A stretch of DNA of 64,000 nucleotides from Krischvirus LF73P4. Made by a program: the position numbers and the translations under genes. The notes below the pieces were generated by a model. That model was not told the origin of the DNA and ran no database searches. It was given only the letters and a program-made list of their open reading frames with translations. Within the stretch, counting starts at the first letter, position 1. Each line of letters begins with the position of its first letter. The DNA lies in the sequence record OZ035795.1. One strand, 5' to 3'. Below are positions 2,927-22,636 of this stretch, in pieces.

Positions 2927-2927
2927 C

Positions 2928-4484: not shown

Positions 4485-4490
4485 ACAAAT

Positions 4491-4508: not shown

Positions 4509-4520
4509 TAGGAGTATCAA

Positions 4521-7078: not shown

Positions 7079-7086
7079 AATAACTG

Positions 7087-7115: not shown

Positions 7116-7133
7116 GTGAGGTGAATTGTAAGA

Positions 7134-7983: not shown

Positions 7984-8008
7984 CGCGGGGAGAAATCCCC
8001 GCTATAAT
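7980..8008 (+). promoter_or_regulatory. PeSL-type promoter copy B (identical to copy A)
   Basis: TTGACG 7980-7985 (overlaps the TGA stop of the methyltransferase frame), hairpin spacer, TATAAT 8003-8008. Confidence 0.7.
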
Positions 8009-8039
8009 ACAACCATCAAAAACAAGTGAGGATTTTATT

Positions 8040-8207
8040 ATGACCAAATTAAAATGTGTTGCTGTAGATTTTGAACTAGCTGATAGCTTTGTTGTTGGTG
8101 ATGAATATGATGCTCGACATGATGGGACTTGCTACTACGTCGAGGATGAATACGGTGTAGAATGGGCGATTCTTCCTGATGATAAATGTTTTGAGGTTGT
8201 CGGATAA
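8040..8207 (+). CDS. hypothetical protein
   Basis: 55 aa from ATG after GTGAGGATTTTATT initiation module; acidic. Confidence 0.4.
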   Translation: MTKLKCVAVDFELADSFVVGDEYDARHDGTCYYVEDEYGVEWAILPDDKCFEVVG

Positions 8208-8380
8208 TGGCTACTGTATGGTTATTGATTGCAATAAGCAATTCAATGTATAATTACGGAAATATGTCAAGCATTGAGTTTGCAACAAAGCAGGATTGCG
8301 TTAAAGCTCGCGAGATTATCCGCGAAGACAATAAACGCTTTATGAATCTATATTGCGTTGAAAAACAAAAGGTGAACTAA
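8207..8380 (+). CDS. small protein, tandem paralogue 1 (MATVWLLIAIS...)
   Basis: 57 aa; hydrophobic N-terminus; start overlaps previous stop (TAATG); similar to the next ORF. Confidence 0.4.
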   Translation: MATVWLLIAISNSMYNYGNMSSIEFATKQDCVKAREIIREDNKRFMNLYCVEKQKVN

Positions 8381-8547
8381 TGGCTACATTATGGTTATTG
8401 CTTTCCGTTAGCGTAGGCGTATATAATAAAGGAACTGTTACCAGCGTAGAGTTTTCATCATATCAAAATTGTTTTGAAGCTGTGCAGGAATTGCAGCAGG
8501 ATAGCGAAATAAACAGAAATACTAAGTTCTTTTGTGTTAAAAAGTGA
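8380..8547 (+). CDS. small protein, tandem paralogue 2 (MATLWLLLSVS...)
   Basis: 55 aa; same architecture as 8207-8380; start overlaps previous stop. Confidence 0.4.
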   Translation: MATLWLLLSVSVGVYNKGTVTSVEFSSYQNCFEAVQELQQDSEINRNTKFFCVKK

Positions 8548-8562
8548 TAGTGAGGTGAATTA

Positions 8563-9726
8563 ATGAGCGTATTTAACCGCGAACATGTTGATATTATGAA
8601 CGAACCGATGTTTCTGGGTAGTGGGTTGGGTATCGCTCGCTATGATATTCAGCGTCATCAAGTATTTGAAGAATTAATTGAAAAATCTCTGTCATTTTTC
8701 TGGCGTCCAGAAGAGATTTCACTTGCAACCGACCGCATTCAATATCTTAATATGGGTGACGTTGAAAAGCGTTTCTTTACCGAAAACTTGAAGTATCAGA
8801 CATTACTTGATTCTATTCAAGGTCGCGCACCGTCCGCAGCATTTGGTCCAATTGTATCTGATCCAACTCTCGATACATGGTTGCAAACATGGACATTCAG
8901 CGAAACGATTCATAGCAGAAGCTATACACACATTATGCGTAACTGTTTCATTGATCCGGCTAGTGAGTTCGACCAGATCATCGATAACCCTGCTATCATG
9001 AAGCGAGCGGAATCTATCGGGAAATATTATGATGATGTTCTGGTGAAAATCCGTGAATACGAGGACGCTAAAGAAAGTTTTAGTCGTTCTTCTGAAAATG
9101 AATTTGACCTTGATGCATATTCTGATAGCATTTCGTACGTGGAAGAAACTAAACGCAATCTGATGGAATCACTCTATCTGTGTATGCATTGCGTTAATGC
9201 ACTGGAGGCAATCCGTTTTTATGTGTCCTTTGCATGTACTTTCAGCTTTGCCGAACGTGGTTTACTGGAAGGTAACGCGAAGATCATGAAATTTATTGCG
9301 CGTGATGAACAACTTCACTTAAAAGGCACACAATACATTATTCGTCAATGGCAAACGGGGGTTGATGGTGATGAGTGGAAACAGATTGCGGAAGAACTTG
9401 AAGGCGAAGCAACGAAAATCTTTCTGGATGTTGTCGAGCAAGAAAAAGAATGGGTAGACCACCTATTCGCAATGGGGTCAATTCCTGGCTTGTCACCGGA
9501 AATTCTGAAAACTTATGTAGAATACCTGGCAGATTCCCGTATGCGTGCTGTCGGACTGAAAAGCCCGTTTAGTGTTCGTCGTCATCCTTTACCGTGGATG
9601 CGTAAGTGGTTAAACTCTGACGAAGTACAGAATGCAGCGCAAGAAGTAGAGATTATGTATCTGGTATCTCAGGTTAATACCGATTTAACAGACGATGACT
9701 ACAACCGATTCGGGAAATATCTATGA
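8563..9726 (+). CDS. nrdB: aerobic ribonucleotide reductase small subunit, intron-less
   Basis: 387 aa; collinear with T4 NrdB (MNEPMFxGSGLGxARYDIQRH, FFWRPEE, SETIHSRSYTHI, FIARDEQLHLKGTQYII). Confidence 0.95.
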   Translation: MSVFNREHVDIMNEPMFLGSGLGIARYDIQRHQVFEELIEKSLSFFWRPEEISLATDRIQYLNMGDVEKRFFTENLKYQTLLDSIQGRAPSAAFGPIVSDPTLDTWLQTWTFSETIHSRSYTHIMRNCFIDPASEFDQIIDNPAIMKRAESIGKYYDDVLVKIREYEDAKESFSRSSENEFDLDAYSDSISYVEETKRNLMESLYLCMHCVNALEAIRFYVSFACTFSFAERGLLEGNAKIMKFIARDEQLHLKGTQYIIRQWQTGVDGDEWKQIAEELEGEATKIFLDVVEQEKEWVDHLFAMGSIPGLSPEILKTYVEYLADSRMRAVGLKSPFSVRRHPLPWMRKWLNSDEVQNAAQEVEIMYLVSQVNTDLTDDDYNRFGKYL

Positions 9727-10199
9727 TATATTTTGTCGATTTAGATTTTACGATCACAGATCCAACGCATCGACTAGCAAAGATGCCAACCGAAAATCTT
9801 GATAAAGTCGAGTCATGGATCGAATATAACAAAGCATGTGGGGGAGATTCCCCCATTTACGATGTAATTCGTGTTATTAATGCTCTTTCCGACAACGGGC
9901 ATTTGATTTACATCCTCACAGGACGAAGTTCACATGCTTACATGGAAACAATTGATTGGTTAATTTCTAACGGGGTGTGTTTTGATAAAATCTTTATGAG
10001 AGGCCGTACCGATTCCCGTAAAGACTATCACATCAAATTAGAGGTAATTAAATCCTTTGATAAAGATGAAGTTGTCGGAGTCTTTGAGGATAACCCAGAA
10101 GTGATTAAAGTTTTGCGTGAAAATGGTTATCGTGTCTTTGACGTAGGAAATCACAAAGATAAGACGCGAGCGGATATTGCAAATCACGGTCATGATTAA
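9723..10199 (+). CDS. HAD-superfamily phosphatase-like protein
   Basis: 158 aa; N-terminal FVDLDFTITD (DxDxT nucleophile motif), later Asp-rich motif; start overlaps nrdB stop. Confidence 0.5.
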   Translation: MIYFVDLDFTITDPTHRLAKMPTENLDKVESWIEYNKACGGDSPIYDVIRVINALSDNGHLIYILTGRSSHAYMETIDWLISNGVCFDKIFMRGRTDSRKDYHIKLEVIKSFDKDEVVGVFEDNPEVIKVLRENGYRVFDVGNHKDKTRADIANHGHD

Positions 10200-10211
10200 T
10201 GTTTGTTCAAA

Positions 10212-10236
10212 GTCGCCCATAGTGGCGACTTTTTTG
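10212..10236 (+). terminator. rho-independent terminator
   Basis: GTCGCC/GGCGAC stem followed by TTTTTT. Confidence 0.6.
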
Positions 10237-10246
10237 TTATTGGGTG

Positions 10247-10275
10247 TTGACAATCTGATCTTGCCATAGCATAAT
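10247..10275 (+). promoter_or_regulatory. sigma70-like early promoter
   Basis: TTGACA 10247-10252, 17-nt spacer, CATAAT; leader CACATCGAAACGGAGGAACATATG. Confidence 0.55.
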
Positions 10276-10299
10276 ACGCACATCGAAACGGAGGAACAT

Positions 10300-10518
10300 A
10301 TGGAAACAGAAGAACAAGTCATTGCATATTTTCATCGTAAAAAGATGAAACTTAGAATCGAAAAGCAGTACATCAATCACTACATTGACCGAGTTCACTT
10401 AACAAGTACACCTTACCTATTCCGGTTGATAAACCCTAGAAAACGGTGGGAGAAGTTGGATAGAAACACAAAAATAATTGATAAGCTCACCCAATGGTGG
10501 AATGAATACAACAAGTAA
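10300..10518 (+). CDS. hypothetical protein
   Basis: 72 aa basic ORF behind promoter and GGAGG ribosome-binding site. Confidence 0.5.
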   Translation: METEEQVIAYFHRKKMKLRIEKQYINHYIDRVHLTSTPYLFRLINPRKRWEKLDRNTKIIDKLTQWWNEYNK

Positions 10519-10525
10519 AAAGTAG

Positions 10526-10554
10526 TTGACACTGAATAACGGGGGTAGTAAGAT
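10526..10554 (+). promoter_or_regulatory. PeSL-type promoter (hairpin GGGGGTAGTAAGATACTCCC spanning -10)
   Basis: TTGACA 10526-10531, 17-nt spacer, TAAGAT -10 inside the palindrome; leader CATCGAAACGAAAC + AAGGAGAATCAAAATG. Confidence 0.65.
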
Positions 10555-10587
10555 ACTCCCATCGAAACGAAACAAAGGAGAATCAAA

Positions 10588-10806
10588 ATGAAATTTACTT
10601 GCACCGACTCTATCAGCAAACACTTTGTAGTAGGCGAAGTATACGAATCTACTACCATTCGCCAGCGTGACCTGATGGGTCGCCTTTACAATCAGCCAGT
10701 ATTCATTATTGGCGAAGAATTGTTCTACATTGAAAACCGTCCGTGGGTTGCTTTCAATAAACGAGGACGCAAGGTAGCAAAATTCGAACTTGTCATTAAA
10801 AAGTAG
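10588..10806 (+). CDS. hypothetical protein
   Basis: 72 aa ORF behind PeSL promoter and AAGGAG ribosome-binding site. Confidence 0.5.
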   Translation: MKFTCTDSISKHFVVGEVYESTTIRQRDLMGRLYNQPVFIIGEELFYIENRPWVAFNKRGRKVAKFELVIKK

Positions 10807-10835
10807 TTGACAGCATGAAACGGGGGTAGTAATAT
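10807..10835 (+). promoter_or_regulatory. PeSL-type promoter
   Basis: TTGACA 10807-10812, palindrome GGGGGTAGTAATATACCCCC across -10, conserved leader. Confidence 0.65.
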
Positions 10836-10873
10836 ACCCCCATCGAAACGAAATACACTTTAAGGAGAATCAA

Positions 10874-11023
10874 ATGAACAACTTTGACGCGGTACTGAAA
10901 ATGGCAATCGAAACTTACGCGGAGATCTCCGGCGAGAAAGTAGAGGACATTATCAAAGAATGTCAGAACTTTGAAAGCCAGACAGCCAAGAATGTTCAAA
11001 TGTTGATGTTTGCGGTTGCATAA
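10874..11023 (+). CDS. hypothetical small protein (49 aa)
   Basis: ATG behind AAGGAGAATCAA module; below track size cut-off. Confidence 0.4.
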   Translation: MNNFDAVLKMAIETYAEISGEKVEDIIKECQNFESQTAKNVQMLMFAVA

Positions 11024-11031
11024 AAAAGCAG

Positions 11032-11060
11032 TTGACAGCATATCACGGGAGTAGTAAGAT
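11032..11060 (+). promoter_or_regulatory. PeSL-type promoter
   Basis: TTGACA 11032-11037, palindrome GGGAGTAGTAAGATACTCCC, TAAGAT -10. Confidence 0.65.
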
Positions 11061-11093
11061 ACTCCCATACCAAAACAACTAAGGAGTATCAAG

Positions 11094-11492
11094 ATGATTA
11101 AATTTCAAACTCGCAAAGATGTTCTGGACTTCGTTAAAGTTTTCGGTTACGCTGCATTGCAACATGCAATGGACAAAATGGCCATCTCCCCAGATCAGAC
11201 TATGCTGATCCGTATGGTTAAAGCAACCGCCTACAAAAACGACATTACCCTCTCAGAAATCAACGACGGTAATACTGTTCGCGAGGTAATTGTTTCTTTC
11301 GAATCACCGAAAATTGGCGGTTTTCATACCACGATGTTAGGTGAAATCACTGTCACTGTATACGGGCAAGGTGGCGGAGTGTTTACCGTCAAAGAAGCAA
11401 TGGAAAATGGAACGCTGAACAAAGAAAAACTGGAATTTGTCCTGAAAATCATCAAGGAGCGTAACGAAGCTCGCGATATTCTGGAAAGTTAA
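11094..11492 (+). CDS. hypothetical protein
   Basis: 132 aa ORF behind PeSL promoter and AAGGAG ribosome-binding site. Confidence 0.55.
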   Translation: MIKFQTRKDVLDFVKVFGYAALQHAMDKMAISPDQTMLIRMVKATAYKNDITLSEINDGNTVREVIVSFESPKIGGFHTTMLGEITVTVYGQGGGVFTVKEAMENGTLNKEKLEFVLKIIKERNEARDILES

Positions 11493-11498
11493 TAAGGT

Positions 11499-11522
11499 GG
11501 GCGGGAGAAATCCCGCCTTTGT
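11499..11522 (+). terminator. hairpin GGCGGGA-GAAA-TCCCGCC + T-run
   Basis: same GAGAAATC loop family as the PeSL hairpins, followed by TTT. Confidence 0.45.
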
Positions 11523-11542
11523 TGTGACGTGAGGAAAGGATA

Positions 11543-12004
11543 ATGATTAATGAGCTAATAGAAAACTATGGATTCGTTAAATATTCATGTTTAGAGTGTA
11601 AAGATGGTGATGTGATTCTGCCGCCTCAGAAGAACCGTTTAAATGTTCTTTACGCTATTGTTGTTGATGATGAACTGGTATACATTGGTCAGACTGTCAA
11701 TCTCAGAAAGCGGATCAATTATTACCGGACTAGCATTAACAGACAAACACCAACAGCGGATACTCGCAAGAGTAAGAATATTCATAAGGCGCTAGAGGAA
11801 GGTAAGACAGTAACATTCTATTACCGCCAGTGTTTTGAGTTGTACATCGAGAATCCAACGGGTAAGGATATTATAAGCACTGCCGATATCGAAGAACCTG
11901 TTTTGATCACCAAATTTAAACCAGAATGGAACACAAATTATGTCAACAAAAGAAAACAACAAAAAAGTTTTAGCATTGTTCAAAAATCTGATGGCACTAT
12001 GTGA
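11543..12004 (+). CDS. GIY-YIG nuclease-domain protein
   Basis: 153 aa; LYAIVVDDELVYIGQT...RKRINYY matches the GIY-(x10)-YIG + conserved Arg core; 3' end overlaps rnlA start by 65 nt. Confidence 0.6.
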   Translation: MINELIENYGFVKYSCLECKDGDVILPPQKNRLNVLYAIVVDDELVYIGQTVNLRKRINYYRTSINRQTPTADTRKSKNIHKALEEGKTVTFYYRQCFELYIENPTGKDIISTADIEEPVLITKFKPEWNTNYVNKRKQQKSFSIVQKSDGTM

Positions 12005-13109
12005 CGGATCTGATACGTTCTATTACAAAGATGAAATTACGGCGATGCAAACTCGTATGCGCATTTTTAGCTATCTGTACTTGAGCAAACCGGAAATGTG
12101 GAATAAACCAGATGCGTTAGAGTGTCGCGGGATCATGTTTGAAATTGACGATAAAGGTCGTCCGGTCCGCATTGCATCTCGTCCTATGGAGAAGTTTTTT
12201 AATTTAGGCGAGAATGATCGCGCTCGCTTTAAGCCGGAAGATGTGGAAATGGTCATGGACAAAATGGACGGTAGTCTAGTAAGCACATACATTGATAACG
12301 GCTATGTTCAGTTGAAGTCTAAAGCGGCCTTGTACTCAAGCCAGGCAGAGAGAGCAAACGGTCTTCTGTATTCAGAGAAGTATGCGGATCTACGCGCTAA
12401 GATTGCTGATATTGGGTCTGATTATACTTTCAACTTTGAATATACAGCGCCCAGCAACCGAATTGTTGTAGAATATTCTGAACCGTCGCTAACACTTCTG
12501 AATGTACGCCATAACGTCACAGGAGAGTACGTACCGCATCAAATGCTATTTGTTGACGCAATCCTACGTCCTCATCTGGTAAATGCGTTACAGGTTGATT
12601 CAGCGCGTTTTGGCAATATTCTTGACGAAGTTCGGACCGCAGAAGGTATCGAAGGAATTGTTGCACGCACTAAAGACGGTCAAATGTTCAAAGTGAAGAG
12701 TGAATGGTATATTGGTGTGCATAACATTAAAAACACATCGATGTTTCCTAATAACCTGATCTACTATGTCGTAGAAAGCGAAACCGATGATTTGCGTGCT
12801 GCATATGAAGGCGAACCGGAAGCACTGGAACGAATCGAGCTATTCGAGGAAGCATTCAGGTCTATTCTTCGCAATGCCTTCACGACAGCAACAGAATTTT
12901 ATAGCGCACACGCGGGAGAAGACAGAAAGACATATGCATCAAATGCGACTATCGAATCACGTAAACATGGTGATGCACAAGCATATATTTTCATGTGTCT
13001 GATGATTGCATTTGATGGTCTTGATTATGACCGTATTCTGGATTCAATGAAAACTTACTATCTACGGAATTATAAGAAACTTATTCCGGCTGATAAGATT
13101 GATTGGTAA
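11940..13109 (+). CDS. rnlA: RNA ligase 1
   Basis: 389 aa; collinear with T4 gp63 (FKNLMALC, RIFSYxY, PDALECRGIMFE, VRIASRPMEKFFNL, DGSLVSTY). Confidence 0.9.
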   Translation: MSTKENNKKVLALFKNLMALCDGSDTFYYKDEITAMQTRMRIFSYLYLSKPEMWNKPDALECRGIMFEIDDKGRPVRIASRPMEKFFNLGENDRARFKPEDVEMVMDKMDGSLVSTYIDNGYVQLKSKAALYSSQAERANGLLYSEKYADLRAKIADIGSDYTFNFEYTAPSNRIVVEYSEPSLTLLNVRHNVTGEYVPHQMLFVDAILRPHLVNALQVDSARFGNILDEVRTAEGIEGIVARTKDGQMFKVKSEWYIGVHNIKNTSMFPNNLIYYVVESETDDLRAAYEGEPEALERIELFEEAFRSILRNAFTTATEFYSAHAGEDRKTYASNATIESRKHGDAQAYIFMCLMIAFDGLDYDRILDSMKTYYLRNYKKLIPADKIDW

Positions 13110-13115
13110 TAATAA

Positions 13116-13138
13116 GCGGGGCTAGTTCCCCGCCTTTT
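13116..13138 (+). terminator. rho-independent terminator after rnlA
   Basis: GCGGGG/CCCCGC stem + TTTT. Confidence 0.6.
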
Positions 13139-13154
13139 GTCGTTGGGGGGTAAT

Positions 13155-13478
13155 ATGTCAAAGCTGATATACATTGTTATCATATCTGTATTGCTGGGGG
13201 TAGGTGGCAATATGTGGTGGGAAAATAAAAAGGAGGTAGATCGACTGAATCAGGAATTTACAGAATATAAGAAAAAGACAGATGAGAAGATGAAGATTGT
13301 AGACTCGCTGCAAAAGGAGATGTACGGAATAAGAACTAAGTTTGCAGAAGAACAAAACAAAGCAATGAAAGACGCTACACGAGGCGATGTAGTAGCACAA
13401 AAACCCAAGTTGGTAGAGAAACAGCTTAATGACTCATTTAAGGAGTTTACCGAAGAATTAAGGGAGGCTACTAAATGA
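13155..13478 (+). CDS. putative i-spanin-like protein (N-terminal TM + coiled coil)
   Basis: 107 aa; single N-terminal TM helix then charged helical region; adjacent to pseT, where T4 carries its spanin genes (pseT.3/pseT.2). Confidence 0.45.
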   Translation: MSKLIYIVIISVLLGVGGNMWWENKKEVDRLNQEFTEYKKKTDEKMKIVDSLQKEMYGIRTKFAEEQNKAMKDATRGDVVAQKPKLVEKQLNDSFKEFTEELREATK

Positions 13479-13927
13479 GCATAGAAATATTTCCTACACA
13501 AGAGCAGATAAGCAATTTTAATCTGGTTGATTATCTGTGGATAGGTGCAAGCATTATTATCCTGATGGTGTTTTCAATTTTCGTGATACACTGGATGTTT
13601 AAGAAAGCACATAAGAATTTTCAGACCGCCATAATCCATGTCTTCGCTGTGCCTATTGTATTTGCGCTTTCTTCGTGTACAATGGACCATTATTCACAGG
13701 AACCGAAATTACATCCTCCACTACCAGCACCAATAGAAAAAGTTGACATTGACCTGAAAGTTGATACAATAGACGGTAAACCTAGAGTTTCTATGTCGTG
13801 GGAGGACTCCCAAAAATTCAGAGTCTGGCTTGCGGATATTAAGAGATATACACTTGAAAGTAAGTTGATCATGTGTTATTATCGAAAAGAACTTAATGAG
13901 GAACGGTGCAAACCGAAGGAGAAATAA
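13475..13927 (+). CDS. putative o-spanin-like lipoprotein / membrane protein
   Basis: AGGGAGG ribosome-binding site, ATG overlapping upstream stop; hydrophobic segment ending in lipobox-like ALSSC, Pro-rich region; product may start at internal Met (13595). Confidence 0.4.
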   Translation: MSIEIFPTQEQISNFNLVDYLWIGASIIILMVFSIFVIHWMFKKAHKNFQTAIIHVFAVPIVFALSSCTMDHYSQEPKLHPPLPAPIEKVDIDLKVDTIDGKPRVSMSWEDSQKFRVWLADIKRYTLESKLIMCYYRKELNEERCKPKEK

Positions 13928-14805
13928 TGCCGAAATGTGAAGTGATTTTAACCGTTGGTTGTTCTGGGTCTGGTAAAACTACATGGGCGATGGAAACATG
14001 TAAACGGTTTAGTAATTATCGTAATGTGAATCGTGATGATCTTCGTCTTATGTTGTTTGGTGTTGACTCACATTTGAAATACAAGTATACTAAGGAAAAA
14101 GAAAAACTGGTGGAGTCTATTCAGAGAATGATTGCTCGTGAGACTCTATCACGCGGATTGAGTATCATTATCTCTGATACCAACCTGAAAGAAAAACATC
14201 GTGTATTCTACAAAGAACTTGCAAAAGAATTTAACGCGGTGTATACTGAACAAGTGTTCAATGAATCATTTGAGACACTAAAGAAACGTAATTTCTATCG
14301 CGGCGAGAAAGCAATTCCACTTTCTCATTTGCGCAACCAATTTTATCTGATGCAGGAATATATGGGTCAAGAAGTATACAAACCGAATACCATGCTGCCA
14401 AAGGCAGTGATCTTTGATATTGATGGAACATTAGCGGATAAGGGCGGTCGTCATCCGTTTGACTGGACAAAGGTCAAAGAAGATAAACCGCGTCCGCAAG
14501 TGATCGAAATGCTTAAACTGTATCGTGATAATGGCTATCGTATCATTACATGCTCAGGGCGTGAGGATGTTTGCGAAGAAGATACTCTGCAATGGCTGCG
14601 TGAACAAGGTATTGAACCTAGTGATCACTTTCAACGTGAAACTAATGATCGTCGTCCTGATCATGAAGTGAAGAAAGAGATTTTCTTCTCTGAAATTGCA
14701 CCGCGTTATCATGTTGTTTTGGCGGTAGATGACCGTGATCAAGTGGTTGACATGTACCGCTCAATTGGTGTAGAATGTTTTCAGGTTAACTACGGAGAAT
14801 TTTAA
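13927..14805 (+). CDS. pseT: polynucleotide 5'-kinase / 3'-phosphatase
   Basis: ATG 13927 after AAGGAG; P-loop GCSGSGKTTWA, phosphatase DxDGT (IFDIDGTLA), collinear with T4 PseT to the C-terminal GVECxQV. Confidence 0.9.
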   Translation: MPKCEVILTVGCSGSGKTTWAMETCKRFSNYRNVNRDDLRLMLFGVDSHLKYKYTKEKEKLVESIQRMIARETLSRGLSIIISDTNLKEKHRVFYKELAKEFNAVYTEQVFNESFETLKKRNFYRGEKAIPLSHLRNQFYLMQEYMGQEVYKPNTMLPKAVIFDIDGTLADKGGRHPFDWTKVKEDKPRPQVIEMLKLYRDNGYRIITCSGREDVCEEDTLQWLREQGIEPSDHFQRETNDRRPDHEVKKEIFFSEIAPRYHVVLAVDDRDQVVDMYRSIGVECFQVNYGEF

Positions 14806-15008
14806 TGTTTACCGATAAACTCAAGCAATTAGGCGAAGCACTTGCTAAACGTGGTTTTAGTGTTGATATTGAACCAGCGCCAGTTATGCCGTTTAGCGAT
14901 GAACGTCGCAGTGTATATGTCATCATGAGAAATAATCATGGTGTGAATACATTCAATGTAAAACAGTATAGCGACGGATCAGTAGAATACTTTCGCGTAT
15001 ACGGTTAA
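14805..15008 (+). CDS. hypothetical protein
   Basis: 67 aa; start overlaps pseT stop. Confidence 0.4.
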   Translation: MFTDKLKQLGEALAKRGFSVDIEPAPVMPFSDERRSVYVIMRNNHGVNTFNVKQYSDGSVEYFRVYG

Positions 15009-15029
15009 TTACTATGTGAGGATTATATT

Positions 15030-15536
15030 ATGTTGTCACAAACTTACATGCAGATCGCCTATCTGATCGCAAAGAACTCTAAATGTGTTTCGTGGAAGGT
15101 AGGCGCACTGATCGAAAAAGACGGGCGAATCATTTCTACTGGATTTAACGGAACTCCAGCAGGGCAAGTAAATTGTAGCTGTCATGCACATAAAAACGGT
15201 TGGCTGGATGATGACGGCAAAATGATCCCAGAAAAACGACCAGAGCATAGTGCATGGTCACAGAAAAACGAGATCCATGCTGAATTAAATGCTATTTTGT
15301 TTGCTGCCCGTAGCGGTGTATCGATTGAAGGCGCTAGTATGTGGTGTACTGCTTCACCGTGTCCAGATTGCGCTAAAGCAATTGCAAACAGTGGTATTAA
15401 ACATCTATACTATTGCGACACATATGATCGAAATGGTGGGCGTGATTGGGCTGATATTCTGAATAATGCAGATATTACGATCACGCGTATTCCAAAAGCA
15501 TTATTGACTGATTTGAAGGGTATTGATAATGACTGA
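15030..15536 (+). CDS. cd: dCMP deaminase
   Basis: 168 aa; cytidine/dCMP deaminase zinc motifs HAELNAI ... PCPDCAKAI. Confidence 0.85.
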   Translation: MLSQTYMQIAYLIAKNSKCVSWKVGALIEKDGRIISTGFNGTPAGQVNCSCHAHKNGWLDDDGKMIPEKRPEHSAWSQKNEIHAELNAILFAARSGVSIEGASMWCTASPCPDCAKAIANSGIKHLYYCDTYDRNGGRDWADILNNADITITRIPKALLTDLKGIDND

Positions 15537-15843
15537 ACAAGTTGATAATATCGCACTTCGTGAAGCACTAAAGAAAATGTTTTCGGTCGGTACTCACTCT
15601 TTGCAGTTTACTAAGAAAGATGGTACTGTCCGTGAGATGATCGCCACGCGAGATCCGGCACTGATGCCGTTTGAAACATACGAAAAGTGGTTAGTTCCGA
15701 ATGTTGAAAAACCGCGTAAAGAATCAGAAACATCTTTGCCAGTATATGAAATTACAGTTGAAGGTTTCCGTAGTTTTGGGCTTGATAGTCTGATTAATGT
15801 AGATGGGCTGACTCCAGCGCAGATCGTCGAAATTTATAAATAA
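15529..15843 (+). CDS. hypothetical protein
   Basis: ATG 15529 overlapping cd stop; 104 aa. Confidence 0.4.
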   Translation: MTEQVDNIALREALKKMFSVGTHSLQFTKKDGTVREMIATRDPALMPFETYEKWLVPNVEKPRKESETSLPVYEITVEGFRSFGLDSLINVDGLTPAQIVEIYK

Positions 15844-15884
15844 TTCATCATTAAACTGTATTGATTTGAAGAGGTAATAAAATT

Positions 15885-16208
15885 ATGACCGTTAAAACTC
15901 CTAAAGCACTTGGTGATTATGTAATTATCGAAGCTAAAGCAGAAAGCGCAGGGACCGAAGTAAAAAGCTCTATGGGGATCATTATTGAGCAAAAGCGCAC
16001 TATGGGTGAGATTCCGCTGGTAGGTAAGATTATTGATATTGGCGAGACGGTAGATAAAGAATTGCTGGGTAAAACTGTTTTACTGCCACATGGAAAGATG
16101 AATAAAGTTCCTCATCCAGACGTTATTAACGGCGTTAAGAAGGAAGAAGAGATCGACCTGAAATGGACTGTAACGCACAAACAGAATATTGTGGTAGTTT
16201 ACGGTTAA
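15885..16208 (+). CDS. 31: co-chaperonin gp31 (GroES-like)
   Basis: 107 aa; pattern shared with T4 gp31 (GDYVIIE, SxGIIIExKR, GEIP, VPHP). Confidence 0.75.
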   Translation: MTVKTPKALGDYVIIEAKAESAGTEVKSSMGIIIEQKRTMGEIPLVGKIIDIGETVDKELLGKTVLLPHGKMNKVPHPDVINGVKKEEEIDLKWTVTHKQNIVVVYG

Positions 16209-16219
16209 TGATTTTAAAC

Positions 16220-16248
16220 GGCGGGAAATAATCCCGCCTATATTTTGG
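16220..16248 (+). terminator. rho-independent terminator after gene 31
   Basis: GGCGGGA/TCCCGCC stem + T-rich tail. Confidence 0.55.
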
Positions 16249-16444
16249 CTATATGATTTTGTAAGTTATTGATTATTAAGGAATTTTATTATGAAAACTA
16301 TGAATGTAAACATCCACGAAATCCATACCGAAGTATTCACCGAAGAAGACCAGTTTGGTGTATGGGTAAATCCTCATTCGATTACTATCGATATTCCTAA
16401 TGACGATTATGATCCGTTCTCTCTGATTAGCGAGATTAGTTTCA

Positions 16445-16924
16445 ATGACTTCTGAAATTGATATCTATGCGGGTGGACCTTATCCATCGGGTGAATTGAG
16501 CAATTTCAATAAAAGACCATTCCGTCTATTTGGTTGCGATATTAACAGCACAGAAGGATTTTTACAGGGGCTAAGATTTAAGAACCCTCAGAGACAAAGA
16601 GAAATCTTTTTGATGCACGGTGGCAAAGCAAAAAGAACCGGAAGAACTGAAAAGATTGAGAATCACATGTTATATTTTCAGGGTCGCCCGATTCATCGAA
16701 TGAGTGAGCATTATTACAGACTGGTACATCTGGCATTTGTTACGATGGCACGGAATAACCCAGAATTTTGTAAAGCATTACTCGCTACCGGAAATAAGAA
16801 ATTGCGTCATAGCATAGGTGGAACTGATCCGTTAAAGACTATATTGACTGAATCGGAATTTTGTAGTATCCTCAATGATATTCGTGAACGTTTAACAAAA
16901 CGAGGTGAAAATGTCAATTCTTAA
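16445..16924 (+). CDS. NADAR-family (YbiA/DUF1768-like) protein
   Basis: 159 aa; ELSNF, TEGFLQGLRF, GGKAKRTGR, LLATGNKKLRHSIGG match NADAR-domain conserved positions. Confidence 0.55.
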   Translation: MTSEIDIYAGGPYPSGELSNFNKRPFRLFGCDINSTEGFLQGLRFKNPQRQREIFLMHGGKAKRTGRTEKIENHMLYFQGRPIHRMSEHYYRLVHLAFVTMARNNPEFCKALLATGNKKLRHSIGGTDPLKTILTESEFCSILNDIRERLTKRGENVNS

Positions 16925-18407
16925 TATCATTAATCAGCTTGCAGCGACCGACAAAACATCGCTGAAAGAAAAGATCCTGAAAGAATCCGCAAGCAATGAA
17001 ACTCTGAAAGAATGCTTTTATCTGGCATATTGCAAACAGGTTACGTTTGGCGTAAAGAAATACGATAAACCATCTCGCTATTCGTCTGTATTGTCTTTAT
17101 CCGGTGCATTGCAGGTCTTTAAAAATAAACTTGCCACGCGTCAAGTAACTGGTAACGCAGCATTACAGCTAGTTACCGATACTCTGACTTGCTTGTCAGA
17201 AGATGATGCTAAAGTTGCAATGATGGTCCTGAATCGTGATCTGGAATGTGGTTGTTCCGCTACTACTGCAAACAAGGTATGGAAGAAACTGATCCCCCAG
17301 CAGCCGTGCCACCTTGCATCGTCATGTTCTGATAAGACTATTGCTAATATCAAGTATCCGGCGTATGCACAACTTAAAAGCGATGGCGCTCGTGGTATGG
17401 CTGATATTGACGGGGAAACATTAGCAATCTATACCCGCTCAGGTAATACCTATCAAGGACTTGATGATTTGTTTGCGGTTTTAGAGCGTCTACGAGGCCG
17501 TGGAATTGTTCTAGATGGCGAATTGGTATATATGCCTACCCTTTCGCAAACACCAGCGCAGAACTTCGTTGAAAGCGTTTATGATGGTACTCTGTCATGG
17601 ATATTTGAAGAAGAGGAAATGCCATTAACGCCAGTAGCGGAAGCAGTGAAAGAATCCGTTGTTGCAGATCGTCAGACCGGAAATGGTATCCTCAACAAAT
17701 CACTTAAAGGAACTATTCCAAAAGAAGAAGCCCAATGTATTGTTTATACTGTCTGGGATGTTATCGACCGTGATGTGTATTACGGAAATGAGAAAGCAAC
17801 GAAGCAATATAAAGATCGATTCGAAGAACTAAAACAGATTGTTGAAGAACTTAACGATCCTCGTGTTCAGATAATCGAAAACACTGTAGTTAACAATATA
17901 GATGAAGCTCGCGAAGTATATCATCGCTATGTAAACATGGGCTTAGAAGGTATTATCCTTAAAAATTTACATGGTGTATTTGAAGATCGCCGTAGTAAAG
18001 ATCAGGTTAAATTTAAAGAAGTGATTGACTTCGACGCGGAAATTGTTGATGTATATCCGCATAGTAAAGACCCCAATAAGGTAGGCGGTTTTACTGTCCG
18101 TAGTGCGTGCGGACGAATGATGACTAACACCGGATCGGGATTGACCGACACCACAACCGAAAAAGGCGATGATGGTATTGAACGTGTGATTCCGTTTGAC
18201 CGTCGAAATGAACTTGACCGAGAAATGTTATGGGCTGACCGTCATAACCTGATTGGAAAAGTTATTGAGATGACATGCAACGGGTATATCCGCAGCAAAT
18301 CACGTAAAGAAGATGAACCGGAGTTCTCTTTATTTCTCCCAATCATCAAACGTATTCGCTACGACAAGACCACTGCAAATACAGTAAAAGAGGTATTCGA
18401 TGTGTGA
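16911..18407 (+). CDS. 30: ATP-dependent DNA ligase
   Basis: ATG 16911; adenylation motif KSDGAR (KxDG), LDGELVY, EGIILKN, C-terminal FLPIxxRxRxDKTxANT as in T4 gp30. Confidence 0.9.
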   Translation: MSILNIINQLAATDKTSLKEKILKESASNETLKECFYLAYCKQVTFGVKKYDKPSRYSSVLSLSGALQVFKNKLATRQVTGNAALQLVTDTLTCLSEDDAKVAMMVLNRDLECGCSATTANKVWKKLIPQQPCHLASSCSDKTIANIKYPAYAQLKSDGARGMADIDGETLAIYTRSGNTYQGLDDLFAVLERLRGRGIVLDGELVYMPTLSQTPAQNFVESVYDGTLSWIFEEEEMPLTPVAEAVKESVVADRQTGNGILNKSLKGTIPKEEAQCIVYTVWDVIDRDVYYGNEKATKQYKDRFEELKQIVEELNDPRVQIIENTVVNNIDEAREVYHRYVNMGLEGIILKNLHGVFEDRRSKDQVKFKEVIDFDAEIVDVYPHSKDPNKVGGFTVRSACGRMMTNTGSGLTDTTTEKGDDGIERVIPFDRRNELDREMLWADRHNLIGKVIEMTCNGYIRSKSRKEDEPEFSLFLPIIKRIRYDKTTANTVKEVFDV

Positions 18408-18873
18408 TAATGAAGGGGCGAAAGCCCCTAAACCTAAAAAATTGTCAAAGAAAGAGCAACGCCAGATCCTGAAAATGAAATATGGTGGACGTTGTGCCTA
18501 TTGTGGCGAGGAACTAGGGGATCGCTGGCACGCAGACCACATCAAACCAGTATTGCGACGCTCAAAGGTAGTCTATGATGAAAATGGACGAATTGCCCGT
18601 AATGATGATGGATCGTGGAAGTATAAGGTTGTAGGAATGCATAAACCGGAACATGATATACTTGATAACATGAATCCGGCGTGTGTGCAATGCAATCTTT
18701 ATAAAAGCTGTATGGGCTTAGAATACTGGCGTAAGTGTATACGCGAGAACTTCCAGAAGTACATTCAGCGCAATATGGGATTGCGAGCGGCTAAACGCTT
18801 TGGCTTGCTGTCAATTCATGACCAGCCAGTAGAATTTTATTTCGAAAAGTACGAGCGCGAAAATAAGGAGTAA
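18400..18873 (+). CDS. HNH endonuclease
   Basis: 157 aa; CAYCGE...HADHIKP...CVQCN (HNH core with zinc-binding cysteines); start overlaps ligase stop. Confidence 0.7.
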   Translation: MCDNEGAKAPKPKKLSKKEQRQILKMKYGGRCAYCGEELGDRWHADHIKPVLRRSKVVYDENGRIARNDDGSWKYKVVGMHKPEHDILDNMNPACVQCNLYKSCMGLEYWRKCIRENFQKYIQRNMGLRAAKRFGLLSIHDQPVEFYFEKYERENKE

Positions 18874-18880
18874 CCATTAT

Positions 18881-19225
18881 ATGTTCTTTCTGTTTATCTA
18901 TATCCTTTTTGTTTTCCTGGTAGGCATGTACGCAAGCCGTTTAAACCGTAGCGTTATCGGTTATGTTATCCTATCATTGATCATTAGCCCGTTGATCACC
19001 TTTATCATTTTGTTGGTGTTGGGTCCAACGAAATCATATGAACAGGAACAAGCAGACAAGCTAAAAGCCGAGATGGTAGAGAAACAATTTGTTCAACTGT
19101 ATCTAGAAAACCCAGATTTTGAGGAAGTTTCCACCCTTAAGCGAATGTATGACGATCTAACACGATACCCTAACTATCGAAATGTGCTGGCTATGGAAGA
19201 AGCCATTAAGCTCATGAAAAAATAA
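18881..19225 (+). CDS. hypothetical membrane protein
   Basis: 114 aa; two N-terminal hydrophobic helices. Confidence 0.45.
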   Translation: MFFLFIYILFVFLVGMYASRLNRSVIGYVILSLIISPLITFIILLVLGPTKSYEQEQADKLKAEMVEKQFVQLYLENPDFEEVSTLKRMYDDLTRYPNYRNVLAMEEAIKLMKK

Positions 19226-19238
19226 TTCAAAAAAGTTG

Positions 19239-19267
19239 TTGACAGGGGATCACGTATCCCCTATACT
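19239..19267 (+). promoter_or_regulatory. PeSL-type promoter (hairpin GGGGATCACGTATCCCC in spacer)
   Basis: TTGACA 19239-19244, 17-nt hairpin spacer, TATACT 19262-19267, conserved leader + AAGGAGAATCAAAATG. Confidence 0.65.
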
Positions 19268-19309
19268 ACACACATCAAAACGAAACACACTTTCTTAAGG
19301 AGAATCAAA

Positions 19310-19588
19310 ATGAGCAACCTGTCTTTCGCTAAAGTAGAAATTTCTAAAACTCGCGGTGGCTTTAAAATCAAAACTTCCAATATCACTTCCTGCCGTGGTT
19401 GCGTCCGGTTTGCGTTCGACTTGGCAGCGAAGCTGGGTATTAAAACCTTTACCGTTGAGAGCGGATCTAACTGGACCACTCTGATTGTTACTGCCGCTTG
19501 GATTAATGGCGAGTATGTGGAAAAAGCATACTTTGACATTTTCTATGACTATGAAGAAAAATGCTTTTATGCACTGCAAGACATGTAA
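19310..19588 (+). CDS. hypothetical protein
   Basis: 92 aa behind PeSL promoter. Confidence 0.5.
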   Translation: MSNLSFAKVEISKTRGGFKIKTSNITSCRGCVRFAFDLAAKLGIKTFTVESGSNWTTLIVTAAWINGEYVEKAYFDIFYDYEEKCFYALQDM

Positions 19589-19598
19589 GGAGGATAAC

Positions 19599-19907
19599 GT
19601 GACAACACAAGATATTGTTAATGTGCTTTATATCTGGACTACTGGTGCAATGATCTCGTATCTAGTATTCTGCTTGTACGCCAGATTCGACAAGGACACC
19701 AAAGAGGTCGATACAGGAGCATTTTGTATTGCTGCAATCGTATGGCCTATAACGTGGACCGTGGTTGATATTGTTATGTGTTATAAAGGATTGAAATGTT
19801 TTGGTTTGATGATTGCTGGTAAACCGGAAGCGAAGCCGCGCAAGCATAAAGGATTTACTCCAAAACAAGAAGACGACGGTCGATATAAACCGGAAGAAGA
19901 TTTTTAA
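19599..19907 (+). CDS. hypothetical membrane protein
   Basis: GTG start after AAGGAGG; two TM segments; C-terminal basic tail. Confidence 0.4.
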   Translation: MTTQDIVNVLYIWTTGAMISYLVFCLYARFDKDTKEVDTGAFCIAAIVWPITWTVVDIVMCYKGLKCFGLMIAGKPEAKPRKHKGFTPKQEDDGRYKPEEDF

Positions 19908-19912
19908 AACAG

Positions 19913-19941
19913 TTGACATGAAAATGCGGTTATCCTATAAT
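19913..19941 (+). promoter_or_regulatory. PeSL-type promoter (hairpin GCGGTTATCCTATAATAACCGC spanning -10)
   Basis: TTGACA 19913-19918, TATAAT 19936-19941 inside hairpin. Confidence 0.65.
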
Positions 19942-19975
19942 AACCGCATCAAATGAACGATGTGAGGATTATATT

Positions 19976-20284
19976 ATGTTTATCTCTTCTGCTACTCCAG
20001 TTAAAGTTTACGGCGAAACTGTGTATCTTCCGGCTGGCTATCGCTATGTTATCGTTGACCGTCACGGTGTAGTGTATGCTTTTAAAGGCCGTCCGGTTGA
20101 GATTGATTCTGAATATGGCACATGGGGATATAAAGCCGCATACATGGATATTCCTGATTTGGGAGTACGTTTAGGAAGATTTGATAATGATGTTAAACCA
20201 TGCTTGATTAAGTATGCATCCTATGGTAAAACTGTTAAACCAAATAGCGTCGGCTGGATTGATGACGGCGTTAACGTGAAATAA
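19976..20284 (+). CDS. hypothetical protein
   Basis: 102 aa; GAGGATTATATTATG initiation module. Confidence 0.5.
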   Translation: MFISSATPVKVYGETVYLPAGYRYVIVDRHGVVYAFKGRPVEIDSEYGTWGYKAAYMDIPDLGVRLGRFDNDVKPCLIKYASYGKTVKPNSVGWIDDGVNVK

Positions 20285-20298
20285 TGTGAGGTGAATTT

Positions 20299-20592
20299 AT
20301 GCTGTCTACTCGTAAAATGGTTGTTGGTGTCGCTGAAAATGCTTTAGAAATCGCTGATGAGGCTTTGACCGTCGCTTATGTTCGACGTGAAGAATTGCTA
20401 TTGAAACACGCGGATCTATTGGTTGAACGGAAAGAGACTATGAAAGCTGGTAAAAGCACGCTCGCGATTGCCATTAAACTATCTGATAGTGAAGATGAGA
20501 TCGTGGAGATCCACACTAAGATCAAGGAAGTAGAAAAATACTCTGAAATGCTGCGACATAATCTTGATGAATTAGGGGTAAATCATGGCTAA
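20299..20592 (+). CDS. hypothetical protein
   Basis: 97 aa; GTGAGGTGAATTTATG ribosome-binding site. Confidence 0.5.
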   Translation: MLSTRKMVVGVAENALEIADEALTVAYVRREELLLKHADLLVERKETMKAGKSTLAIAIKLSDSEDEIVEIHTKIKEVEKYSEMLRHNLDELGVNHG

Positions 20593-20806
20593 GTTACGAT
20601 CTGGACGAGTTTTAACGCTGGCTGAACTGAAAGAAAAAGGTTTAGACCCTGATTCTGTAGGTATTAGACCTATTAATTACATTCTGTTTCTAGAGGGTAA
20701 ACTCTTTACTAATGCTCATCCAGCATTAAATGCACCACATTTTTATAAGTGTAATGACTTTAACGGTTATATCGTTCCAGAATATTTCTTAGAATTTGAT
20801 GATTAG
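20585..20806 (+). CDS. hypothetical protein
   Basis: 73 aa; start overlaps upstream stop. Confidence 0.4.
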   Translation: MAKLRSGRVLTLAELKEKGLDPDSVGIRPINYILFLEGKLFTNAHPALNAPHFYKCNDFNGYIVPEYFLEFDD

Positions 20807-21092
20807 TATAAAACACTCACCGACCGGAAAGGGGTCGGTGATCTTCAATGACGATAAACCGTTAATCTTGATTCGTAATGGTGACTGGACATTGCATGAT
20901 ACCCGTGTTACTATCCATTCACCGCCTAAAGAGATTCAACGGGAATTGGTTAGGATCGCCCTAACCGATAAGCATAAAGAGGCGGTAGGCTATTCTCTTC
21001 TGAAATTAGGTGTTGACTTTCCTTTCGAGTATACGCTAACATTCAGAGAGCAGTCAGTGAAGCTAACAGAGATTCTATTCTCTGAGATATGA
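20796..21092 (+). CDS. hypothetical protein
   Basis: 98 aa; overlaps upstream ORF end. Confidence 0.4.
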   Translation: MMISIKHSPTGKGSVIFNDDKPLILIRNGDWTLHDTRVTIHSPPKEIQRELVRIALTDKHKEAVGYSLLKLGVDFPFEYTLTFREQSVKLTEILFSEI

Positions 21093-21102
21093 GGATTATA
21101 TA

Positions 21103-21534
21103 ATGGTTTATCCAACTCCTAGTAAGATTTACATTGACGATACTCATTTTCTTGTTGAAATTATGGGTATAAAGTTTAGTGGTAATGTTAAAATTGTAGA
21201 ATGGGAATTGCACGGTCAACCTGTAACCGATTATGACAATTATATCCCTTTCGGTGGCGATGATAACTTTGTTTCATTCGACCATGAAGGTTACATGAAC
21301 TTTGAGCAAGACGATGTACCTTTGTATCTGGCAATGATGGATATTCCTACCAAAACAGAATATACAGAGGGTGATTGCGATTGTTGCGGATACTACAGCG
21401 TAACAGATATTAAGCTGCCATCCGGTAAAGAACTTTACAAAGAGGATCATTTCGGAAACTGCAATTTTCCGTGTGATTGGCAAGAATTTTTTGAACTGGT
21501 AGAGATTGAGCGAACTTATTTGAGGAAGGGATAA
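21103..21534 (+). CDS. hypothetical protein (Cys-rich C-terminal half)
   Basis: 143 aa; CDCCGYY...CNFPC; ATGAGGATTATATAATG start context. Confidence 0.5.
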   Translation: MVYPTPSKIYIDDTHFLVEIMGIKFSGNVKIVEWELHGQPVTDYDNYIPFGGDDNFVSFDHEGYMNFEQDDVPLYLAMMDIPTKTEYTEGDCDCCGYYSVTDIKLPSGKELYKEDHFGNCNFPCDWQEFFELVEIERTYLRKG

Positions 21535-22346
21535 TGAAGAAAGCATTAGGTTTAATTCCCTATACGGGCAATAAGGAAAAGTTATTGCCTGGTGTTAGTA
21601 AGTATTTCCCTAAGCACTATAACCGCTTTGTCGATGCCTTTTGTGGCGGTTTGAGCGTGTCTCTGTACGTCGAAGGGGATGTTCTGGCTAATGACTATGA
21701 TCACCGCTTAATTGATGCTTACAAAGCGATTGACGAGTGTCCTGATCCGGTTTTTATGATCAAGCGGATTATTGCCGAAAATGGTTTGTCTCGTGATGAT
21801 AAAGATGCTTACATGGCATTCCGTAAGAAGTATAATGAGAATCCAGATCCGCTATCTCTGTTTGTTCTGATTCAGCACAGTTTTAGCAACATTAACCGCC
21901 ATAACCGGAAGGGCGAATTTAATGCTAATTTTGGTCGCCGGACTTTTAACGAAAACGCGGTAGAGCGTGTCCTGAATTTTAAGGAAGAAAACAAAGACGG
22001 TCGAATCAATTTTACGTCTGGTCGTTATGACGAGATCGAGATCTTGCCCGGTGATTTCGTTTATTTGGACCCGCCGTACCTTATCACTTCTGCGGAATAT
22101 AATAAGTTCTGGAGTGACGAGGAAGAGATTAAATTCTATCAGTGGGTGGAATCTATTATGGCGCGTGGTTTTCAGTTTGGTATCAGTAATGTCACGCATC
22201 ATAAGGGAAAGGTAAATGATCATCTTCTTGACTTTATCAAGCGGAATGATCTAAACTGCGTCCTGTTGAATAAGACCTATTGCCTAGATCGTTCAGGTGG
22301 CAAGTCTTCTGATACGCAAGAAGTTTATGTAACTAACGTAGATTGA
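21534..22346 (+). CDS. dam: DNA adenine methyltransferase (Dam)
   Basis: 270 aa; PYTGNK, FxKHYNRFVDAFCGGLSV (AdoMet motif), DPPY catalytic motif, collinear with T4 Dam. Confidence 0.85.
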   Translation: MKKALGLIPYTGNKEKLLPGVSKYFPKHYNRFVDAFCGGLSVSLYVEGDVLANDYDHRLIDAYKAIDECPDPVFMIKRIIAENGLSRDDKDAYMAFRKKYNENPDPLSLFVLIQHSFSNINRHNRKGEFNANFGRRTFNENAVERVLNFKEENKDGRINFTSGRYDEIEILPGDFVYLDPPYLITSAEYNKFWSDEEEIKFYQWVESIMARGFQFGISNVTHHKGKVNDHLLDFIKRNDLNCVLLNKTYCLDRSGGKSSDTQEVYVTNVD

Positions 22347-22354: not shown

Positions 22355-22636
22355 ATGGTAGAAATTTTTGGTTTTGAAGGTTACAACTGTAAGTATTGCC
22401 AGAATGCAAAGCGCCTTTGTGAATCGCGTAAGATCCCTTACATCTACATTCCGGTTAATGATGGTGTAGACGAAAACGGTCGTCCGGTAAAGATTGATTC
22501 TATCATTGCCGACATTCAGGATCGCGCAGGGGTAGAAGTTATTGCCACCATGCCGCAGATTTTCTATAATGGTGATTATATAGGTGGTTTTGATGAGTTC
22601 AGATCCTTTGTAGTCAAAAACAAGATTAATGGTTAA
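22355..22636 (+). CDS. nrdC: glutaredoxin/thioredoxin-like protein
   Basis: 93 aa; CKYC active-site motif near N-terminus, PQIFxNGxYIGGFDE C-terminal glutaredoxin signature; assignment to nrdC is by position/size. Confidence 0.6.
   Translation: MVEIFGFEGYNCKYCQNAKRLCESRKIPYIYIPVNDGVDENGRPVKIDSIIADIQDRAGVEVIATMPQIFYNGDYIGGFDEFRSFVVKNKING

Follow-up and report, generated by a model that had tools for sequence, protein, structure and literature searches.

Here, we show that the interval 19310-21534 of a 64,000-nt stretch of Krischvirus LF73P4 DNA (sequence record OZ035795.1; the whole stretch is hereafter the window) is filled by seven consecutive open reading frames (ORFs) of 73-143 aa, all on the + strand and designated O1 to O7. 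These are almost certainly real, early, accessory genes. They lie in the known nrdC-tk hyperplastic region of Krischvirus, the RB49-like or "pseudo-T-even" group of Straboviridae, and form two units, each driven by an early promoter-stem-loop element (PeSL), with PeSL-1 serving O1-O2 and PeSL-2 serving O3-O4-O5-O6-O7-dam-nrdC. Gene for gene, O1-O7 correspond to RB49p070 through RB49p064 (RB49 ORF070-ORF064), with dam, nrdC and gene 49 next in line; all seven RB49 genes carry the annotation "hypothetical protein". Overall, the explanation that we prefer, and hold tentatively, is that of two PeSL units of early accessory genes with a counter-defence mechanism.

An earlier, sequence-only reading of this DNA had noted seven small ORFs in the interval, and comparative data bear this out. 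The stretch 19220-21700 has matches in 58 phage records, at 90-98% nucleotide identity, and all 58 Krischvirus records have the O1-O7 block. The seven ORFs were taken from 11 related loci and compared with the window, without gaps, by the Nei-Gojobori method; the ratio of nonsynonymous to synonymous differences (pN/pS) was 0-0.43 in every gap-free comparison. Internal stops are absent from all ORF copies except the most divergent O2, where one results from an ungapped mis-extension. Because pN/pS is low and internal stops are absent, all seven can be regarded as real coding genes, and the substitution pattern indicates that O1-O7 are under purifying selection. Clear Shine-Dalgarno sequences precede O1-O4 and O7 (five of the seven ORFs); that of O5 is weak, and O6 has none. 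Since O4/O5 and O5/O6 also overlap by 8 nt each, O5 and O6 look translationally coupled. The stop codon of O7 overlaps the start codon of dam (TAATG).

The PeSL promoters that had been claimed at 19239 and 19913 are both present, each with sigma-70 hexamers, a 17-nt spacer and a stem-loop (TTGACA-17-TATACT and TTGACA-17-TATAAT, respectively). PeSL-1 (19219..19309, +) consists of an AT-rich tract, a -35 element at 19239-19244, a -10 element at 19262-19267 and the Shine-Dalgarno sequence AAGGAG at 19297-19302; its stem-loop, GGGGATCACGTATCCCC (19245-19261, +), has a 7-bp stem of -11.1 kcal/mol and is contained within the spacer. PeSL-2 (19906..19975, +) has its -35 element at 19913-19918, its -10 element at 19936-19941 and the Shine-Dalgarno sequence GAGGA ahead of O3, and its stem-loop (19925-19948, +; 9-bp stem, -14.5 kcal/mol, z-score -4.6) overlaps the -10 element. 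These two arrangements, with the stem-loop in the spacer or overlapping the -10 element, are the commonest PeSL layouts (Arbiol et al. 2010, PMC2839356). The window contains eight copies of the strict pattern TTGACA-N17-TATANT, all of them in + orientation; chance alone would give 0.06. The late-promoter motif TATAAATA is missing from the island, its sole copy in the window being at 15835. Given consensus sigma-70/PeSL promoters and no late motif in the island, O1-O7 are early-type genes, as had been supposed, and from these signals the block looks purely early.

Evidence that the genes are non-structural and accessory comes in part from a natural variant. The Krischvirus contig L035 carries a clean 1221-bp deletion, equivalent to window positions 20053-21273, that extends from O3 codon 27 to O7 codon 57. 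It occurred at 9-10 nt of microhomology and leaves O1, O2, dam, nrdC and gene 49 intact; contig positions 3268-4103 equal window 19219-20052 joined to 21274 onward, which creates a chimeric ORF, P0003. The source of this contig is Logan SRR29834399, and an 80.8-kb contig is recorded for the same protein P0003. Searching with the seven proteins concatenated (tblastn) placed O1-O6 in Krischvirus only, with no match in any Tequatrovirus record; among T4-type phages outside Krischvirus, O1-O7 were absent in this search, two metagenomic relatives excepted. The claim that the proteins lack recognisable motifs stands as well: scans of all seven against Pfam, NCBIfam and PADLOC yielded nothing above threshold, and in PHROGs each falls in a small family of 'unknown function'.

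The two metagenomic relatives show that part of the block has a longer history. The most distant O7 homologue, P0012 (27% identity), is encoded on the T4-like metagenomic contig L014 (32% GC), where the gene order is O3-like, an O5-sized ORF, O6-like, Mom-family, O7-like, QueC-like PP-loop, Dam, NrdC. The ORF in the O5 position is not detectable as an O5 homologue by tblastn; the Mom-family gene (PF25680, 132 bits) and the QueC-like gene (PF06508; score 31.8 bits, cutoff 22) are identified by their profiles. In the second contig, L023 (42% GC), the order is O5-like, O6-like, O7-like, QueC-like, Dam. The Dam homologues of the module outside Krischvirus have 70-74% identity, and NrdC 52%, to the products of dam (21534..22346, +; a DNA adenine methyltransferase of the MethyltransfD12 family, in the same early operon as O3-O7) and nrdC (22355..22636, +; a glutaredoxin/thioredoxin, the last conserved gene of the syntenic module). 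As O3, O5, O6 and O7 are carried together with dam and nrdC in L014 and L023, they predate the genus, and the conserved gene orders show O3, O5, O6, O7, dam and nrdC to be a module older than Krischvirus. O1, O2 and O4 occur in Krischvirus only. The label 'island' in the sequence-only reading overstated the variability of the block, which is found in 58/58 Krischvirus records and includes four genes that arose before the genus did. Upstream of the module, L014 also contains four paralogous ORFs (268-1569) with a repeated unit of ~65 aa and the motif GG(Y/F)xF...(F/L)P(I/V)xV.

The family of O7 extends further. Full-length homologues at 35-40% identity were found, in the same tblastn search, in ~118 rV5-like (Vequintavirus) records; the rV5 counterpart is ORF210, which the rV5 annotation had already linked to RB49 NP_891635. 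Exhaustive HMMER searching with O7 through 1.84 billion representative proteins gave 11 hits, adding few further members. The hit P0010 (1918 aa) was discarded as a spurious repeat match to 'VRWELNGQPV'. Another protein from this search, P0011 (142 aa), is chimeric: its last 50 residues are the conserved C-terminus of the O7 family, preceded by an unrelated part rich in Cys and His, which suggests that an insertion broke the O7 gene in some rV5-like phage. Word-index protein searches with O3 and O7 returned only relatives above 85% identity, and no O7 relative turned up when 185,579 genomes of bacteria and archaea were scanned. Because matches in the tblastn and HMMER searches came only from virulent phages, and none from bacterial or archaeal genomes, O7 defines a small family confined to such phages. 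Where examined, the Vequintavirus homologue has a Tk.4 macro-domain gene directly after it or within 1.5 kb. In every lineage examined except the P0006 contigs, O7 is found beside genes for nucleic-acid-modifying or de-ADP-ribosylating enzymes.

The O7 protein itself (21103..21534, +; RB49p064 orthologue, phrog_8157) has 143 aa, an isoelectric point (pI) of 4.2 and a net charge of -18. Acidity is a family trait: in eight members pI ranges from 4.15 to 4.63 and net charge from -13 to -18, across both domains of the protein, and in the family alignment acidic residues are conserved in 10 columns and basic residues in none, acidity being kept at 27-49% identity. This argues against direct binding of nucleic acid. 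Such a charge would suit a protein that acts as decoy or inhibitor towards a DNA-binding protein, without proving that role. Twelve residues are invariant in nine family members (P6, F67, C92, C95, G96, G108, H116, F117, G118, P123, W126, F129). They include the elements of a conserved candidate site, C92-x-x-C95 (CxxCG) and E114-x-H116 ((E)xHFG), in which position 114 is always acidic. The protein had been singled out as Cys-rich and perhaps metal-binding. In support, the conserved CxxC plus ExH could form a site; the 'CNFPC' cysteines that figured in the proposal, by contrast, are not conserved, since of the five cysteines C94, C120 and C124 vary and the last two make up this pair. No known zinc-finger or zinc-ribbon family matches O7.

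An AlphaFold2 model of O7, built from the nine-sequence alignment, is confident (predicted local distance difference test, pLDDT, 90.6; predicted template-modelling score, pTM, 0.82) and has two domains. The N-terminal domain is predicted to be beta-rich, with strands between residues 7 and 57, and the C-terminal domain has an alpha-beta-beta-beta-alpha arrangement (helix 69-78, strands 84-90, 98-104 and 110-114, helix 126-142). Structure searches with this model found no known fold relative, and no match to a solved anti-defence protein. The best neighbour in BFVD is V9LZT4 (138 aa), an uncharacterised product of the T4-like Vibrio phage VH7D, at E 3e-3 and probability 1.00 but a TM-score of only 0.36; it may be a very distant member of the O7 family. 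A profile match of O7 to designed ankyrin repeat proteins (DARPins) in the PDB was set aside because it involves one short stretch only. Within Krischvirus, O7 alleles have either ~98% or ~84-87% nucleotide identity to the window (L001-L017), while O6 has 97-99% in all genomes, and dam alleles are distributed independently of those of O7. The presence of two O7 alleles beside a uniform O6, together with this independence of dam, implies recombination breakpoints at the O6/O7 and O7/dam borders, i.e. a mosaic.

How might these genes act? The sequence-only reading had pointed to host takeover or anti-defence, as is common for such islands in T4-like phages, and this is partly supported. It has been reported that Krischvirus lacks genes for hydroxymethylcytosine (hmC) (PMC12115623), so some other means of DNA protection is plausibly needed. 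An early role in counter-defence or DNA protection, with O7 as an acidic decoy or inhibitor, is possible, and we would put it a little short of an even chance at best. On this account, the second unit would be transcribed by host RNA polymerase right after injection, and Dam would be delivered with small proteins that protect the ordinary-cytosine phage DNA from host nucleases or other defences. O7 would be a negatively charged decoy or inhibitor that fills the nucleic-acid-binding surface of a host defence protein, its CxxC/ExH cluster serving to stabilise the C-terminal domain, possibly via a metal ion. O2, as a small inner-membrane protein, would have a separate role in host interaction or exclusion. 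We favour counter-defence because the hmC pathway is absent, Dam is co-expressed, and O7 is found near Dam, Mom, QueC-like or macro-domain genes in three lineages; its support is inferred from this gene context and from the acidity of the O7 family. Several considerations weigh on the other side. None of O1-O7 matches PADLOC, Pfam or a solved anti-defence protein, and O1, O4, O5 and O6 offer no functional clue. Association between neighbours is weak evidence in the tightly packed early regions of phages, and acidity by itself is not specific to decoys. Fixation in 58/58 isolates, moreover, is unusual for anti-defence genes, which turn over fast, and could reflect a housekeeping role in infection.

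A more specific version of this proposal is doubtful, though attractive as a guide. O7 may found a new fold family, an acidic CxxC/His decoy shared horizontally by two unrelated lineages of virulent coliphages and found beside genes for nucleic-acid modification or de-ADP-ribosylation; more boldly, O3-O5-O6-O7-dam may together belong to a pathway of DNA modification or protection in Krischvirus, a genus with one isolate in which cytosine modifications have been reported (see below).

Fixation in 58 isolates is easier to reconcile with a role in infection generally than with one tied to particular strains, and the leading alternative builds on this point. O1-O7 may be host-takeover factors that act apart from immunity, halting or diverting host transcription, replication, division or envelope functions, with O2 at the membrane. 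The strong early promoters are in line with this, as are the small size of the proteins and their lack of homologues, which are typical of such factors (compare the many immediate-early ORFs of T4), and the presence of a membrane protein in the set. Native PeSL promoters have also been found too strong for easy cloning (Arbiol et al. 2010, PMC2839356). Yet a natural variant exists without O3-O6 and without an intact O7, the family and PHROG searches revealed no similarity to any known takeover protein, and the conserved linkage with DNA-modification genes is left unexplained. We consider takeover unlikely as the main function of the block, if not strongly so.

It is also conceivable, with a probability that we judge lower still, that O7 (perhaps with O5 and O6) serves the DNA-modification enzymes encoded next to it as a subunit or regulator, for example by tuning the activity, specificity or timing of Dam, Mom-like or QueC-like enzymes, or as a small metal or redox cofactor protein with the CxxC/His site, and that no inhibition of host proteins is involved. 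The overlap of the O7 stop with the dam start is consistent with such a partnership. So is gene order in the older module, where the O7-like gene lies between the Mom-like gene and the QueC-like and Dam genes (L014) or directly before QueC-like and Dam (L023), and where a glutaredoxin gene closes the set; and the invariant C92-x-x-C95 and E114-x-H116 resemble a functional site more than a passive surface. Dam enzymes of this class, however, act alone in other phages and bacteria. In addition, no known family of partner proteins matches, and in the ~118 rV5-like records the neighbour, where examined, is the macro-domain gene, with no Dam nearby.

One further observation could be read in favour of a modification partner. 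A 2026 paper reports cytosine modifications of unknown genetic origin for Krischvirus isolate SAP but not for the near-identical TB34 (PMC13390438). SAP (L033) and TB34 (L034) are 99.96% identical. Across the island region, TB34 lacks three single bases, one in the G-run of the O6 hairpin and one whose loss frameshifts endonuclease VII, and there is one C/T change in dam. As the deletions look like homopolymer errors, we rejected this comparison as a lead; it lends no support to a link between the island and the modification.

Finally, it is very improbable that any of O1-O7, let alone all seven, should be a structural, core or otherwise essential phage gene. The presence of the block in 58/58 Krischvirus records and the strong purifying selection on O6 would favour this, but the natural 1.2-kb deletion, the lack of late promoters and the absence of homologues from Tequatrovirus and other T4-type genera together rule this case out, no protein falls in a PHROG structural category, and no homologue proved to be a conserved structural or core protein.

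Turning to the remaining genes, O1 (19310..19588, +; 92 aa, RB49p070 orthologue, phrog_15990, pN/pS 0-0.17) has no family or structure match and occurs in Krischvirus only. O2 (19599..19907, +; 102 aa, RB49p069 orthologue) starts with GTG after AAGGAGG and is, from its hydropathy profile, a small membrane protein, with hydrophobic segments at residues 6-24 and 40-62 (at least 19 residues with a Kyte-Doolittle mean of at least 1.6). By the same criterion, none of the other six ORFs has a hydrophobic segment of transmembrane length. Of the two ORFs with membrane helices that had been reported for the interval, only O2 therefore qualifies; the other membrane ORF (18881-19225) lies outside it. No other gene of the block varies as much as O2 (80-95% nucleotide identity, with indels). 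Variation is mainly in the helices, and the loop YARFDKDTKEVD is invariant, accompanied by a charged C-terminal tail. O3 (19976..20284, +; 102 aa, RB49p068 orthologue) has a homologue in the uncultured T4-like contig L014 (41% identity, E 5e-22), and its N-terminal ~50 aa give weak matches to phrog_1972 and phrog_19703. O4 (20299..20592, +; 97 aa, RB49p067 orthologue) is acidic and found in Krischvirus only; sub-threshold matches, all of them to coiled-coil regions, suggest that it is probably a helical coiled coil. O5 (20585..20806, +; 73 aa, RB49p066 orthologue) has a homologue in L023 (46% identity, E 2e-17), where the 8-nt overlap with the next gene is kept.

O6 (20799..21092, +; 97 aa, RB49p065 orthologue) is both the best-conserved protein of the block, with 52-56% identity in L014 and L023 (E 6e-32 and 2e-29), and the most constrained gene (pN/pS 0-0.12). 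Its N-terminus bears the invariant motif HS.TGKGSVIF.D..P.ILIR..WT, and in the distant homologues begins M..[IV][KR]HS.TGKGSVIF. In RB49p065 and several other records (e.g. L001 5612-5866), O6 is annotated from an internal GTG at 20838, giving 84 aa. Because even distant homologues conserve the first 13 residues of the longer form, translation starts at ATG 20799. A scan of IMG/VR and metagenomes with O6 recovered Krischvirus only, and a single-sequence structure model was unusable (pLDDT 46). Matches of O1, O3, O5 and O6 in a sequence search of the PDB were dismissed as artefacts (single-motif matches to designer pentatricopeptide repeat proteins and to HIV integrase, E ~0.5). The first 15 codons of O6 contain a GC-rich 9-bp hairpin (20817..20841, +; -17 kcal/mol, z-score -4.3), which is invariant in 12 Krischvirus sequences, partly retained in L023 and lost in L014. 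It includes rare codons (GGG, TCG), sequesters the GTG annotated as the RB49 start, and has a terminator score on the non-coding strand only. Elsewhere, a tRNA scan found none, internal repeats are unremarkable, and the only Rfam hit, NsiR4 at the PeSL-2 hairpin, is a sub-threshold chance match (27 bits against a 40-bit cutoff). The literature contains no mention of the O1-O7 ORFs under any identifier.

The left border of the block deserves separate comment. The sequence-only reading had placed the block between an HNH gene and dam; dam does lie on the right, while HNH is the left neighbour in this window alone. The HNH endonuclease gene (18400-18873; PF01844, phrog_2118) shares 8 nt with the end of the DNA ligase gene and is followed by a two-helix membrane ORF (18881-19225) homologous to RB49 ORF211. 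According to Arbiol et al. 2010 (PMC2839356), ORF211 is missing in phi1 and resembles an ORF of a Vibrio superintegron. Collinearity of the window with RB49 runs from RB49 position 142853 to 123217 and then from 43041 to 1 (window blocks 1-19313 and 19229-62252), so that at 19219-19313 the ligase-HNH-ORF211 block meets the ORF070-dam block and 80 kb with virion genes is skipped. The switch point falls where two PeSLs that form a direct repeat in RB49 are identical over ~50 bp. PeSL-1 is accordingly a hybrid, composed of the 5' part and stem-loop (loop ACGT) of PeSL211/210 and the ribosome-binding 3' part of PeSL071/070; the stem-loop of PeSL211/210, whose loop sequence is the same as that at 19245-19261, has reported terminator activity (PMC2839356). 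The junction occurs in 0/58 phage records, no fetched IMG/VR or metagenomic locus crosses it, and the exact pattern joining ligase side to island side was not found in the IMG/VR scan. It arose either in the phage, by deletion or rearrangement through the PeSLs, or in the assembly, as a chimera at an 85-bp repeat. In both cases, a PeSL-to-PeSL junction bears on how these cassettes rearrange genomes or break assemblies.

PeSL plus orphan-ORF cassettes are already known as a class, and so are the annotated hypothetical genes: T4-type phages carry more than 100 early orphan genes of this kind, and GenBank has listed these seven as hypothetical proteins ever since the sequencing of RB49. What sets O7 apart as a tractable candidate is the combination of a confident model, a conserved putative site, a pattern of occurrence limited to virulent coliphages, and a consistent neighbourhood. 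As the DNA of RB49-like phages contains ordinary cytosine and these phages are components of therapeutic cocktails, an understanding of how they evade restriction would be of practical use. In future studies, O7 and the dam-linked module are the parts most worth experiment.

How do these genes compare with known systems? T4 has nrdC.1-nrdC.11, which like the genes described here are small early ORFs without assigned function and occupy the same genomic position, between nrdC/49 and tk/rI; no sequence similarity to O1-O7 was detected. In L014, a Mom-family gene and Dam flank the O7 homologue, which recalls the anti-restriction modification genes Mom of phage Mu and phage Dam; O7 itself, however, is unrelated to Mu Mom/Com, and the window has no Mom-like or QueC-like gene. 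The C-terminal half of O7 is predicted to have the same alpha-beta-beta-beta-alpha order of elements as the double-stranded RNA-binding domain, but there is no significant superposition and O7 has no conserved basic RNA-binding residues. T7 Ocr, ArdA and T4 Arn are small, early, strongly acidic proteins encoded beside other anti-restriction genes, and O7, with its charge of -18, is alike in these respects. It differs in that neither its sequence nor its profile places it in any known family of mimics (Pfam, NCBIfam, PADLOC, PDB profile), and its model has no fold similarity to any solved mimic. rV5 ORF210 and the other Vequintavirus homologues share the invariant residues and the acidity of O7; they belong to another phage family and have the Tk.4 macro-domain gene as neighbour, not dam, and ORF210 is likewise uncharacterised. 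With respect to the PeSL plus ORFan cassette of Arbiol et al. 2010, all components are present here, namely the hexamers, 17-nt spacer and stable stem-loop, the AT-rich tract after a stop codon, and then a Shine-Dalgarno sequence and an orphan ORF. The hyperplastic-region cassettes of RB49 and phi1 differ on the left, where in RB49 the neighbour is not that of the window (the ORF211 side being joined here to the ORF070 side, with 80 kb skipped); otherwise gene content, gene order and the two promoter-stem-loop cassettes are shared, and the genes are 95-98% identical in nucleotide sequence.

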